IMG/VR virus record: IMGVR_UViG_2534681656_000013
DNA length: 9,647 nucleotides
Strand: one strand, 5' to 3'
Source: a virus
Lineage: Duplodnaviria; Heunggongvirae; Uroviricota; Caudoviricetes
Part shown: piece after piece, positions 7,843 to 9,034 of the stretch
How positions within the stretch are numbered: the first letter of the stretch is position 1
Layout: each line of letters starts with the position of its first letter
Made by a program: the position numbers and the translations under genes
The notes under the pieces: model-generated
What the model saw: the letters and a program-made list of their open reading frames with translations, nothing else
The model's database searches: none
Told to the model about the DNA's origin: nothing

Positions 7843-9034
7843 ATGGCATTAACCGATATTAAAGTGAAAACCGCAAAACCAAAAGAAAAGCCCTATAAAC
7901 TTGCTGATGGCGGCGGTATGTATCTACTGATTAACACTAATGGTTCTAAATACTGGCGTATGAAGTACCGCTTTGCTGGTAAAGAAAAGATGCTTTCTAT
8001 TGGCGTATACCCCGATGTAACGCTAGCCGACGCTCGTGAAAAACGCAGCGAAGCCAGAAAAATCCTCGCTGCTGGAGGCAATCCAGGGGTGGCAAAAAAA
8101 GAAGAAAAAATCGCGCAACAAATGAGTTTGAAAAATACGTTCGAGGCCATTGCTCGCGAATGGCATCAGTCAAAAGCCGATCGGTGGTCATTACGCTATC
8201 GTGATGAAATCATTGATACCTTTGAAAAAGACATTTTTCCCTACATTGGCAAACGCCCTATCGCCGAAATCAAACCAATGGAGTTACTGGAAGCACTGCG
8301 TAAAATGGAAAAACGTGGAGCTCTGGAGAAAATGCGCAAAGTCCGCCAGCGCTGTGGTGAAGTGTTCCGCTATGCAATTGTTACTGGTCGGGCAGACTAC
8401 AACCCTGCTCCCGATCTTGCCTGTGCTTTAGCTACACCGAAAAAAGTACATTTTCCCTTTCTTACTGCTAATGAACTTCCCCACTTCCTCAACGATCTGG
8501 CGGGTTATACCGGAAGTATCATCACTAAGACAGCTACTCAGATCATTATGTTAACTGGTGTACGAACACAAGAATTACGTTTCGCACGCTGGGAGGATAT
8601 CGATTTTGAGACAAAATTATGGGAGATTCCGGCAGAAGGTAATGAAGATGAAGCGACCTCATATTGTGCCGCTCTCTGAGCAGGTCATTGCCCTATTTAA
8701 GCAACTTGAACCCATCACAAAACATCATCCTCTGGTCTTTATCGGTAGGAACGATCCTCGCAAGCCAATTAGTAAGGAAAGCATTAACCAAGTCATTGAA
8801 TTACTGGGATATAAGGGAAGACTCACAGGGCACGGTTTCAGACACACCATGAGTACCATTCTGCACGAACAGGGCTTTAATTCCGCCTGGATTGAAATGC
8901 AGTTAGCTCATGTGGATAAAAACGCCATCAGGGGTACCTATAATCATGCCCAGTATCTCGATGGTCGCCGTGAAATGATGCAGTGGTACGCAGATTATAT
9001 TGATTCGCTTTATAAGCAAGAGAGTCAGGGTTAA
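7843..9034 (+). pseudogene. int: P4-family tyrosine integrase, disrupted by a +1 frameshift near 8636-8642
   Basis: The N-terminal part (7843-8679) has the typical P4-type start (KTAKPKEKPYKLADGGG) and the first catalytic Arg (TGVRTQELRFARWEDID). The C-terminal part continues in the +1 frame (homology resumes around 8639: ...KMKRPHIVPLS..., through 9034) and carries the HxxR box (GHGFRHT) and the Tyr region (RGTYNHAQY). Total about 396 codons; GGAGG RBS upstream. Much more AT-rich than the satellite core. Confidence 0.8.

Follow-up and report, generated by a model that had tools for sequence, protein, structure and literature searches.

Genes and features at the locus

The window, by which we mean the whole stretch of 9,647 nucleotides (nt) that was analyzed, contains the right-hand part of a P4-like satellite, a short copy of the 3' end of selC (tRNA-Sec), an integrase gene divided between two reading frames, and one end of an IS2 element. 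The coordinates are summarized in Table 1. The intact reference integrase is WP_001218920.1, a protein of 396 amino acids (aa) encoded at positions 9144-10331 of locus L001, from E. coli F8111-1SC3, beside selC. Six further loci that were fetched (L003 to L008) carry the broken gene.

Table 1. Features of the window, with position, strand and the evidence on which each was assigned
Feature	Position	Strand	Evidence
P4-like satellite, right-hand ~7.5 kb	1 to about 7523/7545		Pfam on L003 genes; RefSeq L009; Rfam
psu	222-794	-	
ogr/delta	868-1368	-	
alpA	2651-2917		
ash/icd-like	2914-3513		
c4-a1b1 targets	2976-3028	+	Rfam
isrK	2989-3066	+	Rfam
C4 (C4/CI) antisense RNA	3174-3261	+	Rfam
Derepression protein	3506-3793		
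DUF5375 gene	4377-4697		
Alpha primase-helicase	4712-7045		
Copy of the 3' end of selC (tRNA-Sec), 21 nt	7524-7544	+	Exact match, 0 expected by chance
Integrase 5' part, codons 1-265	7843-8637	+	265/265 identity; PF13356, PF22022, PF00589
Frameshift, +1 insertion, effectively a G duplication	8638-8639	+	Alignment to L001
Out-of-frame tail GNEDEATSYCAAL and stop TGA (8677-8679)	8638-8679	+	Translation
Integrase 3' part, frame 2, codons 266-396 and stop	8639-9034	+	Identity; PF00589
IS2 end	9406-9647	-	Similarity to L001 ends at 9405

The genes of the satellite were read from Pfam matches on those of L003 and from the RefSeq annotation of the near-identical locus L009. The matches to P4/P1-type immunity RNAs (2976-3261) all fall within the region of the listed ash open reading frame (ORF). 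Past the alpha gene there are two 122-nt direct repeats (7092-7213 and 7274-7395) that are 80% identical and lie 182 nt apart. They hold TGTTCACC and GGTGAACA motifs in inverted pairs, and we take them to resemble the crr/ori iteron region of P4. Two 48-aa ORFs in this repeat region (7098-7244 and 7253-7399) are probably not genes. The satellite has an integrase of its own, a full-length protein of 395 aa encoded at the selC-proximal end and so placed outside the window, and the psu-int 'hotspot' genes are likewise beyond the left edge of the window.

The 21-nt copy of selC stands 299 bp upstream of the start codon of the integrase gene. It is both the attR of the P4-like satellite and the attL core of the island that follows. 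Position 7523, immediately before it, is T in the window and C in genuine selC, which places the crossover 3' of 7523. A tRNA scan found no complete tRNA in the window, only the 21-nt remnant, so that selC itself is not contained in it. The earlier note had connected this integrase with selC, and the exact copy bears this out, as does the finding of intact orthologs directly beside or downstream of tRNA-Sec.

On the other side of the integrase gene, a poly-C run (CCCCCC, then A8) is one C longer than in L001, the additional base being at 9259. This insertion is intergenic, and is common to all the loci that bear the frameshift. The IS2 end begins 371 bp past the integrase stop and ~65 bp upstream of a gene for a TPR protein, and is thus also intergenic; it includes the C-terminus of an IS3-family transposase (9417-9614, minus strand). 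The IS2 insert of L003 and L004 is 1,331 bp in length with a 5-bp target duplication, and encodes HTH_Tnp_1 and rve transposase ORFs. L003 has a further insertion, of IS66, that splits the TPR gene.

The integrase of PAI tia

PAI tia is an island of about 46 kb at selC that has direct repeats on its flanks and encodes int (PMC7545054). In L001 the intact int gene is followed by genes for the TPR protein and a phosphoethanolamine transferase, and then by leoA, leoB, leoC and tia. In L003 and L004 the broken integrase is followed by this same set, and there we find a sulfatase-family gene, genes for dynamin-like proteins (LeoA, LeoB and LeoC) and a gene for an OMP beta-barrel (Tia). This leoABC/tia stretch is 99.94% identical to the annotated region of L001. 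Both loci therefore have tia and leoA(BC) downstream of int, the arrangement looked for in PAI tia. The gene at 7843-9034 is the integrase of the PAI tia of ETEC, an island of ~44-46 kb at selC with tia and leoABC. In a reference island (L011) each end is marked by a perfect 21-bp copy of the 3' end of selC, the two lying 43.9 kb apart, and on this basis the island looks excisable when its integrase is intact.

The island and its surroundings differ in their degree of similarity between genomes. Between L004 and L001 identity is 99.94% over the segment of the tia island, against 98.6% for the gltS-yicJ flank upstream of selC, in which there are 123 SNPs in 8.8 kb. The contrast would fit a recent spread of the tia island by horizontal transfer between different backgrounds.

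A single inserted G divides the reading frame

ORF listing and translation of the window show an ORF in frame 1 at 7843-8679, with a product of 278 aa, and an overlapping one in frame 2 at 8558-9034. We compared both products with the intact integrase by BLASTP. The frame-1 product has 265 identities in 265 positions with residues 1-265 of WP_001218920.1, and the frame-2 product is 100% identical to it from V266 to G396. The tail GNEDEATSYCAAL that ends the frame-1 product has no similarity to the intact protein past residue 265 in the same comparison.

Pairwise alignment of the DNA locates the change. Window positions 7521-9405 are collinear with 8822-10704 of L001, with three differences only: T in place of C at 7523, an additional G at 8638 and an additional C at 9259. 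The extra G can be placed at either 8638 or 8639, as the window has GG where L001 has a single G. The intact allele reads GCA GAA GTA ATG AAG (A264 E265 V266 M267 K268), while that of the window reads GCA GAA GGT AAT GAA. The last native codon of frame 1 is thus GAA at 8635-8637 (E265), and the coding sequence resumes in frame 2 with GTA at 8639-8641 (V266), running to a stop at 9032-9034. Chance is not an issue in assigning the lesion, given that one specific base differs from an otherwise identical sequence.

The earlier note, made from the window sequence, had proposed that homology to integrases runs in frame 1 to 8637 and resumes in frame 2 from 8639, with a non-homologous tail up to a stop codon at 8677-8679. 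These breakpoints prove to be exact, and the tail is indeed unrelated to the intact protein. The note favored a fixed indel over slippage on the grounds that there is no homopolymer at the breakpoint, and suggested alignment to an intact integrase to find it. The alignment and the BLASTP comparisons agree with that view: the change is from G to GG, a +1 indel at 8638/8639.

The break lies within the catalytic domain

The two products together contain the three domains of a P4/CP4-57-type tyrosine integrase. Pfam analysis places an Arm-DNA-bind_3 (DUF4102) domain (PF13356) at residues 3-88 with E = 3.7e-29, and the central core-binding, SAM-like domain Phage_int_M (PF22022) at residues 100-193 with E = 4.5e-36; both the arm-type DNA-binding domain and the core-binding domain are therefore present. 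The N-terminal domains of 'CP4-like integrase' with PDB entries 3ju0 and 3jtz match residues 1-96, and the central domain of the CPS-53 integrase (PDB 2kj8) matches the central domain with E = 1.8e-33. A search for a solved full-length P4-type integrase returned isolated N-terminal and central domains, with a distant XerC-like match only. The catalytic domain (Phage_integrase, PF00589) occupies residues 206-371 of the intact protein. In the window it is divided, profile positions 2-58 of 172 matching residues 206-262 of the frame-1 product and positions 64-170 matching the frame-2 product.

The best matches of the integrase in a phage collection searched by tblastn are ~51% identical (a Klebsiella phage and VT2phi_272), and P4 is absent among the 25 matches listed. 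The label 'P4-family', which the earlier note had used and which we retain, is consequently founded on the domain architecture. The gene also stands adjacent to an attachment site derived from a tRNA 3' end, as is usual for integrases of this type.

The catalytic residues were assigned by motif. The box-I arginine is presumably R241, in TGVRTQEL, which is retained in the frame-1 product. We take the catalytic lysine to be K268, in VMKMKRPHIVPLS, a putative assignment that would put it 3' of the break. HGFRH (HxxR), LAHVD (His) and RGTYNH (Tyr) are, on the same motif-based reading, all in the frame-2 part. The DNA thus retains every one of the motifs TGVR, KMKRPH, HGFRH, LAHVD and RGTYNH, spread over two frames, and no single polypeptide carries the complete catalytic domain (R...K...HxxR...H/W...Y). 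For this reason the gene is best regarded as a P4/CP4-type tyrosine integrase by descent that appears now to be a pseudogene of that family. The earlier suggestion that the break falls between the catalytic arginine and the HxxR and tyrosine boxes is confirmed by the alignment and by BLASTP of both halves.

On this reading, translation would now end after 265 native and 13 unrelated residues. The product would retain both its arm-binding and its core-binding domain, as well as the box-I arginine. It would lack the lysine, the His-x-x-Arg, the histidine and the tyrosine nucleophile, and would accordingly be expected neither to cleave nor to rejoin DNA. With the break in the catalytic domain, where it cuts off the first arginine from the Lys, HxxR, His and Tyr that follow, the gene is almost certainly dead; we infer the inactivity of the protein from the interruption of its gene.

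The gene could still function in one of two ways, by programmed +1 ribosomal frameshifting at the site, or by the separate synthesis of two halves that form an active split recombinase. There are in-frame ATG codons at 8642 and 8648, directly after the break, from which products of 128 and 130 aa have been called by gene callers elsewhere, and the inserted G creates an SD-like GAAGG 8 nt upstream of the ATG at 8648. With its own ATG and this SD-like sequence the C-terminal fragment could in principle be translated. In addition, neither half carries other mutations, but that is equally explained if the lesion is recent. Inspection of the sequence at 8630-8645 revealed no slippery heptamer or stall codon, and the site has no in-frame stop or stimulatory element. 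The features of programmed frameshifting (a slippery or stall site with a stimulator, conserved in homologs) are therefore lacking, and the arrangement is confined to one lineage, being absent from 1,106 other genomes. Programmed frameshifting and transcriptional slippage are accordingly rejected, there being no slippery motif or homopolymer, and no conservation. For two separate halves, the break inside the catalytic domain would part Arg I from Lys, HxxR and Tyr, and no tyrosine recombinase that is naturally split in such a way is known to us. We consider continued function by any of these routes to be very improbable. Equally slight is the chance that the 278-aa product, with its intact arm-binding and core-binding domains, binds the selC att sites as a catalytically dead competitor or regulator, which might for example influence how the satellite integrates or excises, or as a split-recombinase partner of the 128-aa fragment. 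An inactivated integrase gene is the reading that we prefer.

The extra base recurs in independent assemblies

We used a 60-bp query (8608-8667) that spans the frameshift site to search complete E. coli genomes. Not one of the 1,106 complete genomes with this stretch matches the query exactly. All of them fall in the 95-99% identity band, and among the matches listed 40 of 40 align 59 record bases to the 60 bases of the query, i.e. they are one base short. The allele of ETEC H10407 also lacks the extra G. The window as a whole is found in no complete RefSeq E. coli genome: O157:H7 tandem arrays come closest, covering 92% of it at 96.6% identity, and genomes that match through the satellite alone cover 78% at 99.7% identity. 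The frameshift lineage is represented by draft assemblies only.

The extra G might then be an error of sequencing or assembly, in which case the real genome would have an intact integrase. Its absence from all the complete genomes carrying the stretch could be read in this way, and the segment from int to IS2 (7546-9405) departs from L001 by two single-base insertions and no substitutions, which is the pattern of indel errors. Yet at least 24 contigs, which come from different submitters and years and include independent Logan assemblies of reads, encode the identical truncated protein. In a collection of 15 billion proteins the exact 278-aa protein is present on 19 contigs, some of them bearing the names of E. 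coli MP021017.5 and.6, and the 128-aa C-terminal product is also on 19 contigs there. A gene-position index has the 278-aa product in 31 blocks, and its contigs include four 2013-era NCBI drafts, the later NCBI assembly GCA_029999815.1 and a Logan assembly of run ERR9938098. All six loci that we fetched agree in having both single-base insertions, the G and the C at 9259, together with the IS2 element, and a GG dinucleotide rather than a homopolymer is an untypical context for an error. Finally, the surroundings of the allele come in two structural forms, one having the P4-like satellite between selC and the broken gene and one lacking it. Errors of assembly would not be repeated in this manner across projects, assemblers and contexts, and we regard a sequencing error as extremely unlikely, indeed as effectively excluded. 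The extra G appears instead to be a real, inherited mutation that is specific to one lineage. Since there is no other coding change in either half of the gene, the frameshift allele is very recent.

The window is closely similar to several of these loci. It differs from L003, L005 and L008 by one SNP, T in the window and G in the others at 2646; L006 shares this difference and has a second SNP at 4860. The SNP at 2646 indicates that the window comes from another, very closely related genome.

Consequences for the island and the satellite

The satellite is present in L003, L005, L006, L008 and the window, and absent from L004 and L007. In the latter two the broken integrase comes directly after yicJ, as the intact gene does in the reference loci, and the sequence joins without interruption to the 3' end of selC in L001. 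Presence and absence of the satellite among genomes that share the G, poly-C and IS2 markers indicate that it was gained or lost after the frameshift. This would probably have occurred by means of its own intact integrase, with the selC site apparently staying in use.

The earlier note had suggested that a dead integrase would lock the island or islands in place. This holds in part. The tia/leoABC island downstream is plausibly immobilized, and has likely lost the ability to excise with its own integrase. It does not extend to the satellite beside it, which has an intact integrase, has moved since the break as judged from its distribution among genomes with shared markers, and remains mobile. 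Only the downstream island would thus be fixed.

The tia island could nevertheless escape immobilization, even with its integrase dead, if the selC integrase of the satellite acted in trans on the island or on the array of both elements. The two elements use the same 21-nt selC core, and the satellite encodes an intact integrase whose activity in the lineage is evident from the presence/absence polymorphism. Hochhut and colleagues reportedly described, in 2006, cross-talk between the PAI integrases of strain 536. Weighing against this, the satellite integrase and the repaired tia-island integrase are 70% identical, and so differ at 30% of positions overall. We think mobilization by the satellite enzyme unlikely, though less so than error or continued function of the broken gene. 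Other P4-type integrases in the genome may also complement in trans.

We are highly confident of the explanation as a whole, that is of a recent, inherited +1 G pseudogene of the PAI tia integrase in one clonal lineage. A single G was inserted at 8638/8639 in the tia-island integrase of that lineage. The frameshift came first, and the satellite was gained or lost later at the same selC site through its own integrase. From then on the tia island would probably be unable to excise by its own means, with the satellite still mobile. The frameshift is a part of ordinary island decay, alongside the IS2 and IS66 insertions. Decayed island integrases are commonplace, and this is an ordinary, lineage-specific pseudogene of that sort.

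The specific allele appears to be undescribed in the literature searched, where the isolate name MP021017 gave no match. Public annotation nevertheless lists the truncated product already, as a 'phage integrase family protein' of 278 aa. The locus should be annotated as one frameshifted pseudogene, rather than as two 'phage integrase family proteins'; beyond annotation the lesion matters little. It marks one lineage of ETEC, in which the tia/leoABC island is probably a fixed chromosomal region, and the combination of the extra G, the poly-C insertion and the IS2 copy provides a handy clonal marker. The lineage also offers a natural comparison, between genomes with the same dead island integrase that have or lack a satellite at the one selC site, and these strains are suited to asking whether the integrase of a neighbor can mobilize an island with a dead integrase of its own.

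Comparison with known systems

The closest relative of the gene is the integrase of PAI tia (ROD-20) in ETEC H10407, together with the selC orthologs. It is the same gene, in the same position at selC and with the same genes downstream. The window differs in having the extra G that splits the ORF, the extra C at 9259, the IS2 from 9406, and the satellite between selC and int. Compared with the P4/CP4-57-type integrases of tRNA-associated islands and satellites more generally, it has the same three domains and an attachment site at a tRNA 3' end, but its catalytic domain is divided between two frames.

The same order of elements is found in O157:H7 (RefSeq BB24-1), where selC is followed by a P4-like satellite with its int, a partial selC repeat, a second P4-type int and an island. 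There the annotation treats the second integrase, of 1,182 bp and with ~90% nucleotide identity to that of the window, as intact, and the downstream cargo differs. A record named 'phage integrase central domain-containing protein' was considered as a second truncated allele and set aside; its CDS of 1,185 bp has no pseudogene flag and is full length.

Degraded integrases are also known from 'anchored' PAIs such as that of E. coli EC7, which like the window have a simple lesion with IS insertions nearby. In the EC7 locus (L013, 2644-3372) a related selC integrase is truncated by IS1, an independent inactivation at the same site. Relative to these degraded PAI integrases, the lesion of the window is a single base, with no further decay of the gene and with a mobile neighbor at the same att site.
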